Assembly (NCBI GenBank): GCA_001786365.1
Contig: MFWK01000022.1
Location: 15,087 to 79,086 of the forward strand
Source of the DNA: Candidatus Nomurabacteria bacterium RIFOXYD2_FULL_35_12
GTDB lineage: Bacteria; Patescibacteriota; Minisyncoccia; Phycocordibacterales; UBA9973
DNA: 64,000 nucleotides
Reading direction: 5' to 3'
Of the stretch, positions 1,321 to 19,494 are shown piece after piece. A program made the translations under genes and the position numbers. Below the pieces are notes generated by a model. The model saw only the letters and a program-made list of their open reading frames with translations. It searched no databases and had not been told where the DNA came from. The number at the start of each line of letters is the position of its first letter. The first letter of the stretch is position 1.

Positions 1321-4241
1321 TATTTTTGCGAATTAGAGAATTTGTGATAAATAGCAGTTAGTTTTTTTACAGTTGTTTCTACCACTTTTATAGTGGACAC
1401 TCGGTGTCCACTATTCTTAGTATCAGTAATAATAAACCTTCCCGCTGTTGTCACTTTCCCTAGTTTAACATAATAGATATCTTTCATTATTTTTTCAAAA
1501 ACTTTTACGTTTTTAGGAGCTACTGACACGAGTATCCTGCCTTGACTTTCGGAAAAAAGCTTGGCATCAGCTGTCAAACACCCGATGTTTGACACAGATA
1601 TATTGCATCCGATATTTCCTCCCACACAGGCTTTGGCTAAAGCAATTCCGAGTCCGCCAGAATTTACTGATATAGAAGAAGCTAAAAGTTCTTTCTGAAT
1701 AGCTTTTTCTGTAGCTAAATATGTTTTGATATTTTTTTCTAAATTAACTTTCGGTACACTATTACCAACTGCACCTAACATTTTAAAATATTCCCCTCCC
1801 CCGAGTTCGTCATTTGTTTCACCTAACAAATAAATTACATCTCCATTGTTTTTAAATTCAGGTGAAACGGTTTTGTATAAATCCGGCATTACACTTATTG
1901 CTGAAATTAAAAGTGTCGGTGGAATAGAAATAGCGACTTCATTGCCCTTTTCATCATAGCCTTTAAAATCATTAAACATGCTGTCTTTTCCTGATATAAA
2001 TGGTGTTCCATAGCCTATAGAGTAGTCATAACAGGCTTTTACGGCGTCTACGAGTTGTCCTAGGCGTTTTGGGTCATTTGATGAGCACCAACAGAAATTG
2101 TCCAAAATAGCGAGTTCTTTGAGGGTTCCACCACAAGCAATAGAATTTCTAATAGCAGTATCTAATGCGCAGGATGCCATGTGGTAGGTGCTGATGTCTC
2201 CATATGATGGATAAACTCCTGTTGATAAAACGACTCCTTTGTTTGAATTTAAAACTGGACGAAAGACTTGGGCGTCGGTATTTATTAGTCCAGCACCAGT
2301 GGTGGGTTTTAATACGGATGATGATTGCACTTCGTGGTCATATTGCTGTGAGATAAAATTAAATCCACTGATATTATTTTGGGCGAGCAGATTTTCAAGA
2401 GTTTTTGTAGAATTTTTATTCCCATCCTTATGGAGGAGGGGTGCAGGGGTGGTGATTTTATATGGCTCAGTAATTAAATGATGTTTTGGTAGGCCATTGT
2501 GCAGGAATTCCATATCTAAATTCATTATTTTTTTTCCTTGATAACTTATTACAACTTTTCCGGAATTAGTAAATTCACCTATTACTGTGGCTTCTACTCC
2601 ACGACTTTTCATTAAATTATAAAATATTTTCCATTTATTTTTTGGAACAGAGAGAGTCATACGTTCTTGTGATTCGGAAATCCAGATTTCCCAAGGACTT
2701 AAGCCAGGATATTTTAGTGGTACCTTATCTAAATATATTTTCACTCCTCCGCATTCCCTTGCCATTTCTGCCACAGATGAAGAGAGTCCACCTGCTCCAT
2801 CGTCGGTAATGCTGTTATATAAATTCATGTTGCGAGCCTCTTTGATTATCGCGTCGCTTAATTTCTTTTGAGTTATTGGATCACCGATTTGGACAGCGGT
2901 GGCAGGCGAAGTGGAGTCTATTCTTACCGAAGAAAACGTCGCCCCATGAATACCGTCGAGCCCAACTCTTCCACCAACCATGACTACATAATCTCCTGCT
3001 TGAGCTTTTTTCTCGTGAGAAGGTCGCTTTTTACCTCCATCTGCAGGTAAATTTCTGGGAATTAACCCTATTGTGCCAGCAAATACTAAAGGTTTACCCC
3101 TATATCTGTCATCATATTTTACAAATCCAGACAAAGTGGGTATTCCGGAGCAATTTCCACCAACATTTATTCCTTTTATTACGCCATCCATAATCCTTTT
3201 TGGAGAAAGCATTTTTTGTGTTTTTCCCTTATCTCGGAAAAGAGGCCTTTTATCATTTGGCTCACCAAAACAAAAACCATATGCATTTACCACTGGTTTA
3301 GACCCTAGTCCAAATCCTATTATGTCGCGATTTACTCCACCTATCCCTGTGACTGCCCCACCAAATGGGTCAAGAGCCGAAGGACTGTTGTGTGTTTCCA
3401 CTTTATGGGTGATTAAATAATTTTTATCAAAAATTATTCCGCCGGCGTTGTCAGAAAATACTGAAACACAGAAATCATCCTTGCCTTTTTGTTTTCGAAT
3501 CAAGTTTGTTGCACCTTTTATGTAAGTTTTATACAAGCCGTCCTTGATATCATCAATAGGATTAGCAAAAATCGTGTGTTTGCAGTGTTCGGACCATGTC
3601 TGTGCCAAAGACTCTAGCTCTATATCTGTGGGATTTCTTTTTAATTTAGAAAAATACTCTTTGATAACCTTCATTGAAGACAAATCTAGTGCTAGTGGCC
3701 CTCTGCGTGATCCATCTTCATTTTTTATCCCTTTTTCCCCTATTTCAATAAGTTCAGCATCTTCCACATCTAAAGATACACTTATAACTGGCTTTTTCTT
3801 TTTGAGAATAACTTTAGGAATTTCATTCGGTAAGTTTATTTTATTTGATTTTATAGGCACAATGTTAGCCCTTTCAATGAGCGGGTTATAAAGGGTTAAT
3901 GAATATTCTCGTACTTTTTCAATTTCTTTCTCTTTTATAAAGAAAATTTTTGAGGTGTATACATTAAAGTTAAAATCTTTTTTTAGATGAAGTAAATCAG
4001 TGGCAATTTCTTTGACTGTATGGCCGACATTGTCTGTAACACCCGGTAAAAAACCTATCTCAATAGCACATTGATAATTGTTTATTTTTGGAGATTCATT
4101 AATAAAGTAATCTTCTAATGTTGGATTAGTGAGCATTTCTGCGAGCTTTATGAGTTCTTTTTTAGATAATTTTGAGTCAATTAGATATGAATCTGCCTTG
4201 GTTGATACTTTTTTAGGCGCAATATATATCCGAGAAATCAT
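1320..4241 (-). CDS. purL: Phosphoribosylformylglycinamidine synthase, synthetase subunit (large-type PurL with N-terminal domain, no glutaminase domain)
   Basis: 973 aa. Hallmark motifs are present: AQTWSEHCKHTIF, and the AIR-synthase-related GATNLIRKQKGKDDF...THNSPSALDPFGGAVTGIGGVNRDI. Confidence 0.85.
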   Translation of the reverse strand: MISRIYIAPKKVSTKADSYLIDSKLSKKELIKLAEMLTNPTLEDYFINESPKINNYQCAIEIGFLPGVTDNVGHTVKEIATDLLHLKKDFNFNVYTSKIFFIKEKEIEKVREYSLTLYNPLIERANIVPIKSNKINLPNEIPKVILKKKKPVISVSLDVEDAELIEIGEKGIKNEDGSRRGPLALDLSSMKVIKEYFSKLKRNPTDIELESLAQTWSEHCKHTIFANPIDDIKDGLYKTYIKGATNLIRKQKGKDDFCVSVFSDNAGGIIFDKNYLITHKVETHNSPSALDPFGGAVTGIGGVNRDIIGFGLGSKPVVNAYGFCFGEPNDKRPLFRDKGKTQKMLSPKRIMDGVIKGINVGGNCSGIPTLSGFVKYDDRYRGKPLVFAGTIGLIPRNLPADGGKKRPSHEKKAQAGDYVVMVGGRVGLDGIHGATFSSVRIDSTSPATAVQIGDPITQKKLSDAIIKEARNMNLYNSITDDGAGGLSSSVAEMARECGGVKIYLDKVPLKYPGLSPWEIWISESQERMTLSVPKNKWKIFYNLMKSRGVEATVIGEFTNSGKVVISYQGKKIMNLDMEFLHNGLPKHHLITEPYKITTPAPLLHKDGNKNSTKTLENLLAQNNISGFNFISQQYDHEVQSSSVLKPTTGAGLINTDAQVFRPVLNSNKGVVLSTGVYPSYGDISTYHMASCALDTAIRNSIACGGTLKELAILDNFCWCSSNDPKRLGQLVDAVKACYDYSIGYGTPFISGKDSMFNDFKGYDEKGNEVAISIPPTLLISAISVMPDLYKTVSPEFKNNGDVIYLLGETNDELGGGEYFKMLGAVGNSVPKVNLEKNIKTYLATEKAIQKELLASSISVNSGGLGIALAKACVGGNIGCNISVSNIGCLTADAKLFSESQGRILVSVAPKNVKVFEKIMKDIYYVKLGKVTTAGRFIITDTKNSGHRVSTIKVVETTVKKLTAIYHKFSNSQK

Positions 4242-12406: not shown

Positions 12407-13108
12407 TTATTTATTATTGGCAATTTTTTCAAAAATCCCGTCTGACCATCCTGCTATTTTTCTAACTAAATTAGAACTTCTTCTAACCATTATTTTTAAT
12501 ACTCCATGATATTTTTCTCCGGTATTTTTTCTATTTGTTTTCTTAATTTTATTATTTTTAAGATAAACTTTAGAGAAGTTATCGACCGAAAAACCAGTAG
12601 TTTTAGACCAGAATTGCCTTACTTCATCTATCCTTTCCTTATGACTCGCATGAATCATTATTTCAAATAATATCATATTATTTGGTATTTTGCATATTTC
12701 ATCAAGCCATTTTAGGAATAAAATTATCATTTTAGGATCCATATTAGAAAAAGCAGTTGGAGACCCAGGGCGATATTGTTTTTCTTTGGTACCTTCAGCC
12801 CAATAAAGAACAACCCCTATAAGAAAAAATTCTTTTATAGATAAATTTTTTATCTCAGATTTTGCTTCAAAAAATATCTTTTCTTGCTTTTCAATTCTTT
12901 GTTTCTTTTTTGCTTGTCCACCACGAAGCGATGCAAGTCTTTTAGCCTTAGTAAATATTTGTTTTTGAGCTTTAGCCATACCGACACTTCGTAACCAAAT
13001 TGAGAGAGTTGATTTAGCTACGGGAATAGCTCTCAAAATGTCTGAATAGGTTTTACCTTCTTTGCGTAAAGCAATAGCTTTTTCTTTTTCTTTCACCTTT
13101 TTTATCAT
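12407..13108 (-). CDS. HTH-domain protein with LAGLIDADG-like C-terminal domain (possible homing-endonuclease-like / mobile-element remnant)
   Basis: 233 aa. The N-terminal KEGKTYSDILRAIPVAKSTLSIWLR is an HTH. The C-terminal region carries FLIGVVLYWAEGTKE, resembling a degenerate LAGLIDADG motif. Sits directly upstream of tRNA-Gln. Confidence 0.35.
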   Translation of the reverse strand: MIKKVKEKEKAIALRKEGKTYSDILRAIPVAKSTLSIWLRSVGMAKAQKQIFTKAKRLASLRGGQAKKKQRIEKQEKIFFEAKSEIKNLSIKEFFLIGVVLYWAEGTKEKQYRPGSPTAFSNMDPKMIILFLKWLDEICKIPNNMILFEIMIHASHKERIDEVRQFWSKTTGFSVDNFSKVYLKNNKIKKTNRKNTGEKYHGVLKIMVRRSSNLVRKIAGWSDGIFEKIANNK

Positions 13109-14239: not shown

Positions 14240-14301
14240 ATGAGGATTATACTCTAAAAAAGAAAAAATCTAAAGAATTTTAAGCGTCGTGGGTTCCCTA
14301 A

Positions 14302-14811
14302 CTAATCGTCTTCGTAATCTCTATTTTTAGGTAAAGTAGGGTTTGGATTTGCTACAGGTGGAGTAGTTGGATTACTAGAACTAGTTGCTACTGTCTGATT
14401 TAAATCTCCTATATAATAAGCAGAGAGCAGAGCATGGGCAGAAGAAGAATGCGCCCCAGTGCCACCTCTATTTGCATAAATTGTCGTCGCATCGGTGCCA
14501 CAAGTCGGCAAAATAGCGCTGACACCTCCAGGGTGTTGGTTGAAATAAGAAGTAACATCATAGATTTTACCGGAAACAAGGAGCCAGCAACTCTGTCTTG
14601 AATTATGTTTTGTAAGTTAAGTTTTATTTAAGAGTAAACTAGAATTTCCAGATTTTGTGCCAGAAGTATTATTAAGATTATTATTTCCAAGAACATTTTC
14701 TCCATTTGTTATTGTTCCAGTATTTTGATTATATAAAATGAGCCCAGCCACGATAATGGCCACAGTCACTGCCCAGAAAATAAATAAAGACATCGTTACG
14801 TATTTTTTCAT
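14302..14811 (-). pseudogene. Secreted/membrane-anchored cytochrome-b5-like heme-binding domain protein interrupted by an in-frame TAA
   Basis: ORFs 14617..14811 (signal/TM MKKYVTMSLFIFWAVTVAIIVAGLILY plus an Asn/Thr/Gly-rich linker) and 14302..14511 are in the same frame, separated by a single TAA (14617..14619). Reading through the stop gives ...LVSGKIYDVTSYFNQHPGG..., the cytochrome b5 fingerprint, which starts upstream of the annotated TTG start of the second ORF. Confidence 0.45.
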
Positions 14812-14817
14812 AAAATT

Positions 14818-16125
14818 TTAAAGACTAAATTCTTCTGAATGAATTTTATTATTAATAAAACCTAAATTTATAAACTGTTCTCTTAAACTCTTCATAAACT
14901 TTTTAGGTCCGCATAAGAATATATCTATATTTATGTCCTCATTTTTTGAAACTAAACTTACAGAAATATAACTATCTTTTTCTGAAAGATATGGGTGAAA
15001 TTTAAAATTATTATTTTGCCTAGCTATTTGTTCAAATTCTATAGCGAAAGCCAACTCAGAAGTATTCTTTACACTATAATATAGGTCTATATTATAAGAA
15101 TTAAACTCTGCTTTTTTTGTATTAATCTGCCTCGCCATACTCAAAAATGGAGTGATGCCGATACCTCCAGCTATCCATATTTGCCTTTTTGACTCCCCTT
15201 TTAAATAAGAAAAAGAACCAAAAGGTCCTTCGATTGAGCAAGTAACTCCCGGCTTTAAAAGATAAATCATCGAAGTGTAGTCTCCTAATGTTTTTATACC
15301 TAAAGATAAATGATCATCACTAGGAGAAGATGTTATAGAAAATGGGTGAGATTCAGAAAGGATACCTTTTTCTTGGAATCTCAGAAAAACAAATTGTCCT
15401 GGTAGAAATCGCATTCTTTTACTCAATGATGAAAGTTTTAATTCCGCTATGTCATCATTTACTCTTATTATTTCTTCTAATTTATATTGATACTCATCCT
15501 TTTTATAAACTTGCAAAATAGTTCTGTAAATATAAGAACAGGCACCCAGCATTGCTAAAATTATCATGTAGTATTTTAATGTCGTATTGTTAGAAATGTC
15601 GCTAGGTATCAAAAACATATGCAGGCCACTTAAAAACAAAACAATTCCTAGATATTTGTGAGTATTTTTCCAATTTTCATATTTAAATTTTAAATAAAAA
15701 GTAATTACCATCAAAACAATAAATACAAGGATAGCAATTTTACCGAGGTTTAAAGCTAGATCTTGAAAAGAGAAAACAAAGAGAAAAGAAGCTTTCAGGG
15801 AGATAAATAAATATTGAATAATAAGAAAAACTGGGTGAAAAAGTATGAGGCAAAAAGCTAATGCTCCGATAGTGTGGTGTTTAATATAAACTCTATTCAG
15901 TCCATTGAATAATTTATCTAAAAATTTAAAACGAGCAGCTAAAATAAAATTAATGGAAAGTAGTGCCATACCTAAGAGTCCAGTTATCTGCCCGAGACTA
16001 CGAAATGTCATTCCAAATGAAGTAAACCTATCAGCTAGTGGCTTCATAAAAAGCCAAATGATTATAGGAATGATAGACAAAATTATAACGAGAATAAGAC
16101 CTGAATTATTTTTGAACAATTTCAT
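14818..16125 (-). CDS. Ferric-reductase/NADPH-oxidase-like flavocytochrome (TM bis-heme domain + FAD + NAD(P)H domains)
   Basis: 435 aa with six N-terminal TM helices. Paired His pattern HHTIGALAFCLILFHP / HKYLGIVLFLSGLH (bis-heme); FAD motif HPFSI; NAD(P)H motif GGIGITPF; C-terminal CGP. Confidence 0.7.
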   Translation of the reverse strand: MKLFKNNSGLILVIILSIIPIIIWLFMKPLADRFTSFGMTFRSLGQITGLLGMALLSINFILAARFKFLDKLFNGLNRVYIKHHTIGALAFCLILFHPVFLIIQYLFISLKASFLFVFSFQDLALNLGKIAILVFIVLMVITFYLKFKYENWKNTHKYLGIVLFLSGLHMFLIPSDISNNTTLKYYMIILAMLGACSYIYRTILQVYKKDEYQYKLEEIIRVNDDIAELKLSSLSKRMRFLPGQFVFLRFQEKGILSESHPFSITSSPSDDHLSLGIKTLGDYTSMIYLLKPGVTCSIEGPFGSFSYLKGESKRQIWIAGGIGITPFLSMARQINTKKAEFNSYNIDLYYSVKNTSELAFAIEFEQIARQNNNFKFHPYLSEKDSYISVSLVSKNEDINIDIFLCGPKKFMKSLREQFINLGFINNKIHSEEFSL

Positions 16126-16157
16126 AATTATGATTTTATTATATTAAAAACTTATTT

Positions 16158-17240
16158 TCAACTTAATTTATTATTTTTAATAAAAGTATTAATTGTCTTT
16201 TCTACTTGTTTAGAATTTTCAGTTTCCATTAATTTTATTCGAAGCTCTTTTGCACCATCAAAACCGTTCACGTAAGCTTTAAAATGTTTTTTCATCACAT
16301 CAAAACCTTTATGTTTTGGTTTAGCGAGTTCTTCATCAAAAATCTGTGTATGCTCTATTAGAACTTCAAGCTTTTCTTTAATGGAAGGAAGAACAGCATC
16401 AAAAGAGACTTGGGAGCGCGACGGCGCGAGCACGAGGAATTTTTCAGTAGAAAAATATCCGTGCTCTTCGGATGCTGTTCTTCCTGAAAAAAACCAAGGA
16501 TTTCCAAAAACTCCCCTGCCTATCATCACTCCATCACAGCCATACTCTCTAGCTTTATCTTCTGCATCTTTCAAACTCGCAACATCACCATTACCAATGA
16601 GTAAAATATCTTTACCACTCTTCTCTATGCATTTTTTAACTTTTTTAATAAGTTCCCAATTTGCCGGAACGAGTGAAAGTTCTTTTGTGGTTCTCAAATG
16701 AATCGTCAAAGCTGAAATGTCTTCTTTTAATAATTCAGGTATCCAATTATCTATATCTTCTTTATTAAAACCAACTCTCGTCTTCACTGACACAGGAGTA
16801 TTTAGGCCAGCTGATTTTATTCCCGCATGAGCCGACTGAATAATTTCTCGCGCAAGCTTCGGATTCTTTATCAAAGCCGAACCAGCTCCTTGGCTGATTA
16901 CTGATTTATCCGGACAGCCCATATTTATGTCTATGCCATCAAAACCAAGGCTCGCAATATACTGACAAGCCTTCTTCATATTTTCCAGATTAGCGCCAAA
17001 AACTTGCGCCACAATAGGCCTTTCACGTTCTTTATATTTTAAAATATGCGCTAGCTTTTTTCTGCCAAGCTTGTCCGCAAGGCCATCTGCAGCCACGAAC
17101 TCAGTCCAGAAAACAACTTTGTCTTTGTTTTCCCTATTCTTGCCATATTTTGCCAACATATAGCGAAAAGCGATATCAGTGACATCTGACATCGGCGCAA
17201 GGCAGAAGAAAGGTTTATCTAGTTTTGTCCAAAAATTCAT
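16158..17240 (-). CDS. dusB: tRNA-dihydrouridine synthase (Dus family)
   Basis: 360 aa. FFCLAPMSDVTD, DINMGCP, TIM-barrel FMN motifs. Confidence 0.8.
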   Translation of the reverse strand: MNFWTKLDKPFFCLAPMSDVTDIAFRYMLAKYGKNRENKDKVVFWTEFVAADGLADKLGRKKLAHILKYKERERPIVAQVFGANLENMKKACQYIASLGFDGIDINMGCPDKSVISQGAGSALIKNPKLAREIIQSAHAGIKSAGLNTPVSVKTRVGFNKEDIDNWIPELLKEDISALTIHLRTTKELSLVPANWELIKKVKKCIEKSGKDILLIGNGDVASLKDAEDKAREYGCDGVMIGRGVFGNPWFFSGRTASEEHGYFSTEKFLVLAPSRSQVSFDAVLPSIKEKLEVLIEHTQIFDEELAKPKHKGFDVMKKHFKAYVNGFDGAKELRIKLMETENSKQVEKTINTFIKNNKLS

Positions 17241-18228: not shown

Positions 18229-19494
18229 CTACTTTATAAACTCTCTATTACCCATATACTTTCTCAAAACTTCTGGAATTTTTACAGAGCCATCAGCTTG
18301 CTGGAAATTTTCCACTATTGCCTCAATTATTCTAGGAGTAGCCACAGCTGTATTGTTTAAAGAATGAGCATATTTTAATTTTCCATCTGCATCTTTATAT
18401 CTAATATTCAAACGTCTAGTTTGAAAATCATGAAAATAAGAAGCTGAATGAGTCTCTCTGTATTTGTTTTGAGAAGGCATCCAAACTTCGATATCGTATT
18501 TCTTTACTTGTCCGAGGCCTAAGTCTCCACCACAGTTTGCAACTATATGATAAGGCAAATTTAATGCTATAAGTAAATCCTCTACATTTTTTGTAATTTC
18601 TTCGTGAAATTTTACACTCTCTTCATGATTAGCTTCACACAATACTACTTGTTCTAGTTTATAAAACTCATGCACTCTAAAAAATCCTTTAACATCTTTA
18701 CCATGACTTCCTGCTTCTCTACGAAAACAAGTAGAAAATGCGGCAAATTTTATAGGAAATTTTGTTTTATCCAAAACCTCATTTGAATAATAAGACATAG
18801 TTGCGACTTCCCCAGTACCAGCCAAATAATCACCGTCTTGAGTCTTATATAGGTCATCTTCTCCACCTGGAATGTATCCTGTACCAACCAAAGAAGCCTT
18901 TTTTACGAGCGATGGCACAATCATCGGAATAAAACCCTTACTAACTAAACTATCAAAAAAGAATTGCCATAATGCAAAAGCCAAGAGTGCCCCTTCATTT
19001 TTCAAAAAATAACCTCTAAAGCCTGCAACTTTCGTGCCACGCTCAAAATCTGCAAGATCCAAGTCACTTATTAAAGTTAATTGATTCTTTATTTCAAAAT
19101 TAAAAATAGGTTTTTCTCCGCCAACTTTTACTTCTTTATTTTCTGCATCACTGGATCCTTCTGGCACAGATATATCTGGCACATTTGGCACACTCAGCAT
19201 CATCTTCTGCCATTCTTCCATTATTGTTTTCAGTTTTTCTTCTTTTGATTTAATATCTTCCTTCACCACCCGCATTTCTTCAATGAGCTGAATTTTTAGC
19301 GCTGAATCTTGATTGCGAACTATGTCGTTTGAAACTTTGTTTACTTCTGAACGGAGCTCTTCTACTTCTTTTAATATTTTTAAGCGTTCATCATCGAGAG
19401 CTATGAGTTTAGTTATGTCTATATCCACGCGCTTTTTCTTTGCGCCCTCTTGCACTATCTCTTTATTTTCACGAATAAATTTGATGTCTAGCAT
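18229..19494 (-). CDS. serS: Seryl-tRNA synthetase
   Basis: 421 aa. N-terminal coiled-coil arm MLDIKFIRENKE...; class II motifs FRREAGSHGKDVKGFFRVHEF and GLGQ. Confidence 0.9.
   Translation of the reverse strand: MLDIKFIRENKEIVQEGAKKKRVDIDITKLIALDDERLKILKEVEELRSEVNKVSNDIVRNQDSALKIQLIEEMRVVKEDIKSKEEKLKTIMEEWQKMMLSVPNVPDISVPEGSSDAENKEVKVGGEKPIFNFEIKNQLTLISDLDLADFERGTKVAGFRGYFLKNEGALLAFALWQFFFDSLVSKGFIPMIVPSLVKKASLVGTGYIPGGEDDLYKTQDGDYLAGTGEVATMSYYSNEVLDKTKFPIKFAAFSTCFRREAGSHGKDVKGFFRVHEFYKLEQVVLCEANHEESVKFHEEITKNVEDLLIALNLPYHIVANCGGDLGLGQVKKYDIEVWMPSQNKYRETHSASYFHDFQTRRLNIRYKDADGKLKYAHSLNNTAVATPRIIEAIVENFQQADGSVKIPEVLRKYMGNREFIK

Follow-up and report, generated by a model that had tools for sequence, protein, structure and literature searches.

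A conserved NOX-cytochrome b5 gene pair in Paceibacterota and a population-wide nonsense codon in the b5 gene of a Rifle aquifer lineage

Among solved structures, SpNOX of Streptococcus pneumoniae (PDB 8QQ7, 8QT6) is the best match to a NOX-like flavocytochrome encoded in a 64,000-nucleotide stretch of Candidatus Nomurabacteria bacterium RIFOXYD2_FULL_35_12 (contig MFWK01000022.1, positions 15,087 to 79,086; the window, to whose numbering all coordinates refer unless another locus is named). This flavocytochrome gene, here called NOX, and the cytochrome b5 gene directly behind it, which is interrupted by an in-frame TAA, are the subject of the present analysis. According to the available parts of PMC5676040 and PMC11564096, SpNOX is a single chain in which a ferric-reductase domain of six helices, carrying two bis-His hemes, is joined to a FAD/NAD(P)H dehydrogenase, and a partner gene is not mentioned in these parts. 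Cryo-EM revealed that its outer heme is unusually solvent-exposed and that a canonical O2-reduction site is lacking, and the enzyme reduces cytochrome c directly and faster than O2, as described in the accessible sections of PMC11564096. O2 and, slowly, Fe(III) are also reduced in vitro without any partner, and in the same sections the authors raise the possibility that the physiological acceptor is something other than O2 and, drawing a parallel with MsrQ-MsrP, that there could be a protein acceptor. The window NOX appears to share this architecture, neither enzyme has regulatory extensions, and its four heme histidines, HPFS and GIGITP line up with those of SpNOX. It differs from SpNOX in that the identity is roughly 30% when judged by eye, and in that it belongs to the Candidate Phyla Radiation (CPR) and adjoins a dedicated b5 gene.

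Several other described systems resemble parts of this locus. In the MsrQ-MsrP (YedZ-YedY) pair of Gram-negative bacteria, a membrane heme protein with a ferric-reductase domain donates electrons to an extracytoplasmic protein partner from the same operon, an analogy that the SpNOX authors base on the exposed outer heme; a comparison by literature rather than by sequence indicates that MsrQ has no fused dehydrogenase and draws on quinols, and that MsrP is a molybdoenzyme and not a b5. A 2021 preprint reported that ferric-reductase and b5-domain genes co-locate in CPR bacteria, which was not seen outside CPR, found the pairing in 185 of the 1427 CPR genomes with a ferric-reductase domain, and proposed a membrane complex (bioRxiv 10.1101/2021.11.17.468889). 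Those pFre/cytb5-domain loci and the window have in common a ferric-reductase gene beside a PF00173 gene, and a response regulator lies near one of the related pairs described below. The focus of the preprint is on MAPR-like, Tyr-ligated 'cytb5MY' proteins in multi-gene loci with two-component systems, whereas the unit in the window is minimal, with two genes, and its b5 is of the classical bis-His type (HPGG…HS) and nonsense-mutated. Four points are new compared to the preprint: the tight NOX-b5 operon in Paceibacterota, the occurrence of b5 in a single and in a tandem form, the connection with the SpNOX acceptor question, and the evidence that the stop is genuine and population-wide, neither an error nor a signal for recoding. 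The b5 fold and its bis-His ligation are shared with E. vacuolata b558 (1CXY), which shows that classical b5 occurs in bacteria, and with human b5 type B (3NER). Those proteins are either soluble or, when C-terminally tail-anchored, turned toward the cytoplasm, whereas the window b5 is anchored at its N-terminus, continues in a long linker, ends in an acidic Pro-rich tail and has a predicted outward orientation.

The b5 gene (14302..14811, minus strand) ancestrally comprised 169 codons and is broken at codon 65, as established by its translation, by the Pfam Cyt-b5 match and by intact orthologues of 154-184 aa at 44-70% identity. Translation of 14811..14302 yields 64 codons, a TAA at 14619..14617, a further 104 codons and a terminal TAG (14302-14304, minus strand). 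The sequence around the in-frame stop is AAAACTTAACTTACA, and reading across it gives '…LLLNKT', TAA, 'LTKHNSRQSCWLLVSGKIYDVTSYFNQHPGG…HSSSA…YYIGDL…', a Pro-rich acidic tail and the TAG. The still-translatable part of 64 aa (14620..14811, minus strand) consists of MKK, a hydrophobic anchor of 19-21 residues (residues 8-26; 14734-14790, minus strand; Kyte-Doolittle peak 2.64) and an Asn/Thr/Ser/Gly-rich linker. This 35-residue linker is the least conserved part of the protein (distance 0.77 vs 0.32 in the b5 domain), as expected of a flexible tether. The b5 domain proper (residues 61-140; 14392..14631, minus strand) lies 3' of the stop except for its first four codons, and is followed by a Pro/Thr-rich C-terminal tail with the acidic end …RDYEDD (14305..14391, minus strand), in which orthologues keep NPxxPPxANP…DD.

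When the stop is read as X, the product matches Pfam Cyt-b5 (PF00173) with an E-value of 2.9e-20 and 72.5 bits (cutoff 23.7), and the match opens at the stop position itself, which corresponds to position 4 of the 74 in the profile. Alignments with human b5 type B (3ner, E 1.4e-15) and E. vacuolata b558 (1cxy, E 1.4e-13) include both axial histidines, H93 of HPGG (codon 14533-14535, minus strand) and H121 of HSS (codon 14449-14451, minus strand), which are invariant across 23 aligned sequences. Two cysteines, C75 (SCW) and C104 (TCGTDAT), are also invariant in 23/23 aligned b5 partners (window region 14449-14631), and human b5 type B has no Cys at the aligned positions. A disulfide between them would fit an extracytoplasmic location, and the Lys-Lys of MKK ahead of the anchor points to an outward-facing b5 by the positive-inside rule. 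The encoded protein is a classical bis-His b5 with an unusual N-terminal anchor. The first in-frame ATG, GTG or TTG after the stop is a TTG at 14511, 35 codons on and past HPGG, which rules out reinitiation; the reading frame is interrupted at codon 65 with no restart before HPGG. A preliminary description of this DNA had proposed a b5 fold behind a membrane anchor and an Asn/Thr-rich linker, a single in-frame TAA at 14617..14619 and a b5 fingerprint that begins before any restart codon, and these proposals are all confirmed by the Pfam match, the translation and the position of the first start codon. No other gene with an in-frame interruption is detectable in the 64-kb window, which also contains no second b5 or NOX copy that might compensate.

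A search of the repaired b5 against 5.8 billion proteins returned 59 relatives, all of which carry PF00173 and the named ones of which are 'Candidatus Paceibacterota'. About 45 of them are 138-197 aa long and have the anchor-linker-b5-tail layout, and about 14 are 262-295 aa long with two b5 domains. An intact b5 allele of the same species was not found among the 5.8 billion proteins, where the best full-length match is 70% identical, and a contig scan of one genome per species did not return the same species, its best match being 58% identical. In a 23-sequence alignment, column 65 is Glu in 22/22 orthologues aligned with the window, and at the DNA level the aligned codon in 57 related loci is GAA in 42, GAG in 13 and another codon in 2, and in none of them a stop. 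The closest relative (locus L006) has AAAACTGAATTG where the window has AAAACTTAACTT, that is, AAA ACT GAA TTG against AAA ACT TAA CTT. Since the relatives carry GAA or GAG, the lesion is a single G-to-T change of a conserved Glu codon in the first strand of the b5 fold.

Past this codon, the window b5 keeps all 26 family-invariant columns, and the only departures at highly conserved columns are I79V and A111I, both of which are also found in intact orthologues. Selective constraint was assessed by a relative-rate test on amino acids against the nearest intact orthologue, because at 64-70% amino-acid identity synonymous sites would be saturated for dN/dS. In the b5 domain, 11 window-specific changes stand against 3 orthologue-specific ones (chi-square 4.6), all of them conservative; the anchor shows 3 vs 3, and the NOX C-terminus is equidistant from outgroups (0.485 vs 0.483). 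The excess in the b5 domain is at most a weak hint of relaxed constraint. Dating of the mutation from population variation has no power because the b5 region is invariant in all contigs, and variation near the gene is limited to a recombination-like tract in the neighbouring Dus gene and to masked third-position sites in NOX. The mutation is recent relative to the divergence from the nearest known relative.

The in-frame TAA is a genuine, population-wide feature of the gene and not an artefact. Over 541 bp across the b5 gene, the window and five contigs from different samples are 100% identical, and five further contigs carry the same TAA, including one from another project and assembler (SRR1658466, PRJNA268031, megahit). 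The contigs with the TAA, at least ten in total and independently assembled from groundwater metagenomes, derive from JGI, ENA ANAN16 and PRJNA268031, the evidence throughout being assemblies and deposited records. The TAA is also kept by a strain variant (L004) that differs from the window by 20 single-nucleotide polymorphisms (SNPs) elsewhere. In the public assembly collection, the identical NOX protein is present on contigs in 62 blocks, and the truncated 64-aa b5 product is indexed in 80. Furthermore, the 64-aa and 69-aa fragments are annotated as 'hypothetical proteins' in four NCBI genomes (KKP86895, KKP88849, OGJ06168, OGJ10729), which are Parcubacteria GW2011_GWC1_35_8 and three records placed by UniRef in Candidatus Nomuraibacteriota. 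The allele was recorded over several sampling campaigns, in 2011 and later, at what the sample and assembly names indicate is the Rifle aquifer, and was binned independently. A separate variant was observed in SRR3989339 (P0062; window ~14640-14850), in which the NOX C-terminus (…FINNKI) of a 446-aa protein runs straight into the b5 linker (NNTSGTKSGNSSLLLNKT) and the frame closes with the TAA found in the window; a deletion or a chimeric assembly across AAT-rich repeats would account for this variant.

In this genome TAA serves as a stop codon, as it terminates 41 of the 58 long open reading frames (ORFs) in the window, NOX included. The base after these 41 genuine TAA stops is A in 24, T in 12, G in 4 and C in 1, C being strongly avoided, and the b5 TAA is followed by C (14616-14619, minus strand), as would be expected if the stop arose by mutation within a coding sequence. 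In E. coli, UAA-C is among the weaker termination contexts. A search for suppressor tRNAs, which the preliminary description had proposed for the genome, was run on the 64-kb window, where none was found among the 4 tRNAs, all ordinary. Codon reassignment and an efficient ochre suppressor are contradicted by the use of TAA to end 41 of the 58 long ORFs, together with the ordinary tRNAs in the window. Ribosome hops were considered by sequence inspection: a +5 hop from ACT to ACT hits a stop within three codons, and a +9 hop from ACT to ACA is the only one that would keep the frame.

The pairing of the two genes is conserved well beyond this population. GTDB representatives, taken as one genome per species, yielded 58 loci with a related b5, and in 39 of these 58 species-level Paceibacterota loci a NOX homologue (31-71% identical) lies directly 5' on the same strand. 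The spacing in the 39 pairs ranges from a 4-nt ATGA overlap (8 loci) to 53 nt from the most likely b5 start. The orthologue comparison suggested by the preliminary description was carried out, and the NOX-linked b5 is a single intact ORF in 37 of the 39 loci and is never split as in the window. The operon arrangement claimed there, with its 6-nt gap, is borne out. The view that such a module is unusual for a reduced genome has to be corrected: NOX-b5 pairs recur in Paceibacterota (39/58), and co-location has been described as specific to CPR bacteria (bioRxiv 10.1101/2021.11.17.468889).

Roughly every second NOX-linked locus pairs NOX with a protein of 270-350 aa in which two b5 domains follow one anchor in tandem (L017-L021, L023, L025-L029, L031, L032, L035, L036, L038, L039, L041, L042, L044, L045, L048, L053, L062; genes at ~3001-3950 of these loci), and such domains in series could extend the reach of an electron relay. 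The sole other broken b5 among the 39 NOX-linked loci was observed in Candidatus Zambryskiibacteriota LacPavin_0419_WC90 (JAPLZX010000007.1; L027:2981-3020), where 20 bp (CAACATCCAGGTAATGCTAG) are duplicated in tandem and shift the reading frame within the first domain of a tandem-b5 gene. This duplication is possibly a mis-assembly, the two b5 domains being near-identical in DNA.

With regard to gene neighbourhood, one locus (L012) has the order SerRS-FtsQ-Dus-NOX-b5-DnaX, the same as the window, and another (L009) has Peptidase M10-NOX-b5-RF with a response regulator nearby. The flanking genes thus differ between loci, and the NOX-b5 pairing is therefore more than an inherited neighbourhood. 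In addition, a search that started from NOX, and was therefore unbiased toward b5, found an intact b5 directly 3' in 6/6 relatives with enough flanking sequence.

The NOX gene itself (14818..16125, minus strand) is intact and encodes a SpNOX-type flavocytochrome of 435 aa, with the ferric-reductase membrane domain and its two b hemes at the N-terminus and the FAD/NAD(P)H dehydrogenase at the C-terminus, as indicated by the ORF, the Pfam matches and the best solved-structure match, and its TAA stop (14818..14820, minus strand) lies 6 nt before the b5 ATG at 14811. Pfam assigns Ferric_reduct to residues 48-165 (E 2.6e-12), FAD_binding_8 (E 3.3e-14) and NAD_binding_6 (E 4.4e-11; NAD_binding_6 and NAD_binding_1 both at about 5e-11). 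SpNOX (8qt6/8qq7) is matched with an E-value of 2.4e-37 over NOX residues 48-418 and chain residues 34-382. The FAD-binding motif HPFSI (residues 260-264; 15334..15348, minus strand) fits H[PSA]F[TS][LIMV], and a motif scan located the NAD(P)H-binding GIGITP at residues 321-326 (15148..15165, minus strand).

The predicted heme ligands of NOX (15619..15876, minus strand) form two H-x12-H pairs, H84 (15874-15876) with H97 (15835-15837) and H156 (15658-15660) with H169 (15619-15621), which sit in the hydrophobic segments 85-103 and 159-177. They align with H69/H83 and H129/H142 of SpNOX, whose roles as heme ligands are given in the available parts of PMC11564096. A simple hydropathy scan found 5-6 hydrophobic segments within residues 9-177. 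The filter of Hajjar 2017 for bacterial NOX/FRE proteins, as far as it is set out in the available text of PMC5676040, asks for 3-7 predicted transmembrane helices (six expected), for the FAD motif H[PSA]F[TS][LIMV], and for two transmembrane-helix heme motifs of the form His-x12-14-His with a separation of 20 residues or more, and NOX contains the FAD, NAD(P)H and paired-His heme motifs of this filter. The three Pfam families, the His pairs, HPFSI and GIGITP support the full ferric-reductase/NOX architecture that had been attributed to the gene, and the protein extends the SpNOX-like group of bacterial NOX/FRE enzymes, with a predicted activity of that kind. In one JGI contig (L075), the NOX gene has Ns at 15781, 15778, 15772, 15769 and 15688 (span 15688-15781), all at third codon positions, which suggests masked synonymous polymorphism within the population.

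Taken as a predicted electron-transfer module, NOX would take electrons from cytoplasmic NAD(P)H and pass them via FAD to the inner and then to the outer b heme, across the membrane. Cytochrome b5 is a one-electron carrier by nature. The ancestral b5 would have been an outer-face cytochrome, held in place by its N-terminal anchor and flexible linker, and such a tethered protein, with one or two domains, would most likely accept electrons from the exposed outer heme and deliver them to an external acceptor. The route from NOX to b5 is plausible by analogy with the exposed outer heme of SpNOX and its reduction of cytochrome c. The G-to-T change converted the conserved Glu65 codon from GAA to TAA just as the b5 domain begins. 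The present product is presumably a peptide of 64 aa that comprises anchor and linker, and normal amounts of the heme domain are presumably no longer produced.

The b5 gene is thus probably a recent loss-of-function allele, fixed in a near-clonal Rifle population, rather than a case of recoding; it would be a young pseudogene and a natural knock-out of the acceptor, with NOX left intact. The pseudogene alternative of the preliminary description finds support in the Glu codon of 55/57 relatives, in the single intact ORFs of the orthologues and in the undecayed domain. Of the other two alternatives raised there, a sequencing or assembly error is contradicted by the same TAA in many independent assemblies and four deposited genomes; a bypass of the stop gained no positive support, and reassignment or efficient suppression conflicts with TAA being the main stop. 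The gene resembles ordinary nonsense pseudogenes of reduced or clonal bacteria in its one-base lesion in an otherwise intact gene, its near-clonal fixation and its absence from relatives, and differs only in which gene was hit.

Several points qualify this reading. The b5 domain 3' of the stop has no frameshift, second stop or radical substitution, which would likewise be expected if it were translated to some extent, and a TAA-C context occurs after only 1/41 genuine TAA stops, so that some leakage is conceivable. NOX is intact and shows apparently synonymous polymorphism (L075), so the module as such has not been given up. A single aquifer system yielded all the samples, and 'fixed' refers to that population only. 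The outward topology of b5 and the electron flow from NOX to b5 are predictions from synteny, the positive-inside rule and analogy. An intact NOX that varies only at third codon positions is compatible with either a very recent b5 loss or a b5-independent NOX activity.

Among the rival explanations, an artefact of sequencing, assembly or consensus calling that conceals a true GAA codon is extremely unlikely. The stop differs from the ancestral codon by one base, a change that an error could make, and the TAA is documented in assemblies rather than in reads; however, the same TAA recurs in at least ten contigs from differing samples, assemblers and projects, the truncated product is indexed in 80 assembly blocks and annotated in four NCBI genomes that were binned independently, and the records of 5.8 billion proteins contain no intact allele of the species. 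It is no more credible that the gene is functionally split into the 64-aa anchor and a separately started C-terminal fragment, or that TAA is decoded as an amino acid. Gene callers do annotate ORFs of 64 and 69 aa, but the latter starts at a TTG past HPGG and would have no export signal, no first axial His and only some two thirds of the fold, the orthologues are never divided in this way, and a codon that ends 41/58 long ORFs is not a sense codon. A leaky TAA, at which near-cognate readthrough or an ACU-to-ACA hop would give a little full-length or almost full-length b5, enough for function and for selection to maintain a low-expression allele, is the main rival to a loss of b5 but is still unlikely. 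It would be in keeping with the preserved domain past the stop with all its invariant residues, with the rarity of TAA-C among genuine stops (1/41), with the intact NOX and, more speculatively, with the matched Thr codons for a +9 hop in ACT TAA CTT ACA. However, none of the 57 related loci outside the population has a stop at this position and 55 have Glu, so that the site has not evolved for recoding; UAA serves as the chief stop codon of the genome and the window holds no suppressor tRNA; the weak lineage-specific excess of changes in the b5 domain (11 vs 3) hints at relaxed constraint; and the youth of the mutation explains the preservation equally well. The more specific claim that ribosomes pass the UAA at codon 65 often enough to matter physiologically, by near-cognate readthrough in the unusual UAA-C context or by an ACU-to-ACA hop over UAA-CUU, and that b5 is a down-tuned allele under selection, is very unlikely. 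If true, it would represent a naturally fixed functional ochre bypass in a standard-code bacterium, and a natural hypomorph in which b5 could be tested as the acceptor of SpNOX-type enzymes.

A further rival concerns the partnership and not the stop. NOX may not use b5 at all, the pairing reflecting a different common function, for instance in heme handling, with O2 or Fe(III) as the acceptor, in which case the loss of b5 would leave electron export unaffected. The partner-free reduction of O2 and, slowly, Fe(III) by SpNOX in vitro, as reported in the available text, would be in line with this, as would the intact NOX beside the b5 stop and the fact that most CPR ferric-reductase genes have no nearby b5, the pair being present in 185/1427 genomes (bioRxiv 10.1101/2021.11.17.468889). 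We nevertheless regard this explanation as doubtful, as the tight and often ATGA-overlapping junctions persist down to 31% NOX identity and with differing flanks, b5 is present 3' of NOX in 6/6 members of its clade in the search that started from NOX, and SpNOX passes electrons to a soluble cytochrome at a higher rate than to O2, according to the accessible part of PMC11564096.

The surroundings of the pair were also inspected. A promoter-like TTGAAA-17-TAAAAT lies just 5' of the NOX start codon (16133..16161, minus strand), and a promoter-like TTTAGA-17-TATAAT is found between the b5 stop and the next gene (14246..14274, minus strand), which encodes a DNA polymerase III gamma/tau-like protein and is called dnaX. 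Each is a consensus match only, at 10/12 positions in a consensus scan, and their location before NOX and after b5, ahead of dnaX, fits a bicistronic unit of NOX and b5. Between dnaX and tRNA-Gln, a 233-aa ORF (12407-13108, minus strand) has a sub-threshold HTH_23 match only (E 0.0095) and is kept in all contigs of the population. On the other side of the pair, in the Dus (tRNA-dihydrouridine synthase) gene, the L004 strain variant has 19 SNPs clustered in 175 bp (16713-16887, minus strand), nearly all at third codon positions, and differs from the window at one site in the remaining 9 kb; the cluster may have been acquired by recombination over a short stretch with a related lineage. In ANAN16 scaffold_107 (L002:474-1897; window ~18229-19494), seryl-tRNA synthetase is called as two pieces of 138 and 323 aa in a segment that is 96% identical to the window with 4 gaps; the segment stems from a divergent strain or was locally misassembled.

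To conclude, the 'hypothetical proteins' in four public genomes can be curated as the halves of one broken b5 gene. In Paceibacterota the gene of the NOX homologue almost always adjoins, and often overlaps, that of a b5 of this kind, and an outward-facing tethered b5 would offer a concrete and testable candidate acceptor for SpNOX-type enzymes. CPR bacteria are generally considered to lack respiratory chains, and a conserved chain from NAD(P)H through FAD and two hemes to b5 would bear on how these bacteria dispose of reducing equivalents, or on how they interact with a host, iron or oxygen. If the b5 gene is indeed a young pseudogene, the Rifle population would constitute a natural b5 knock-out in which NOX has been left intact.

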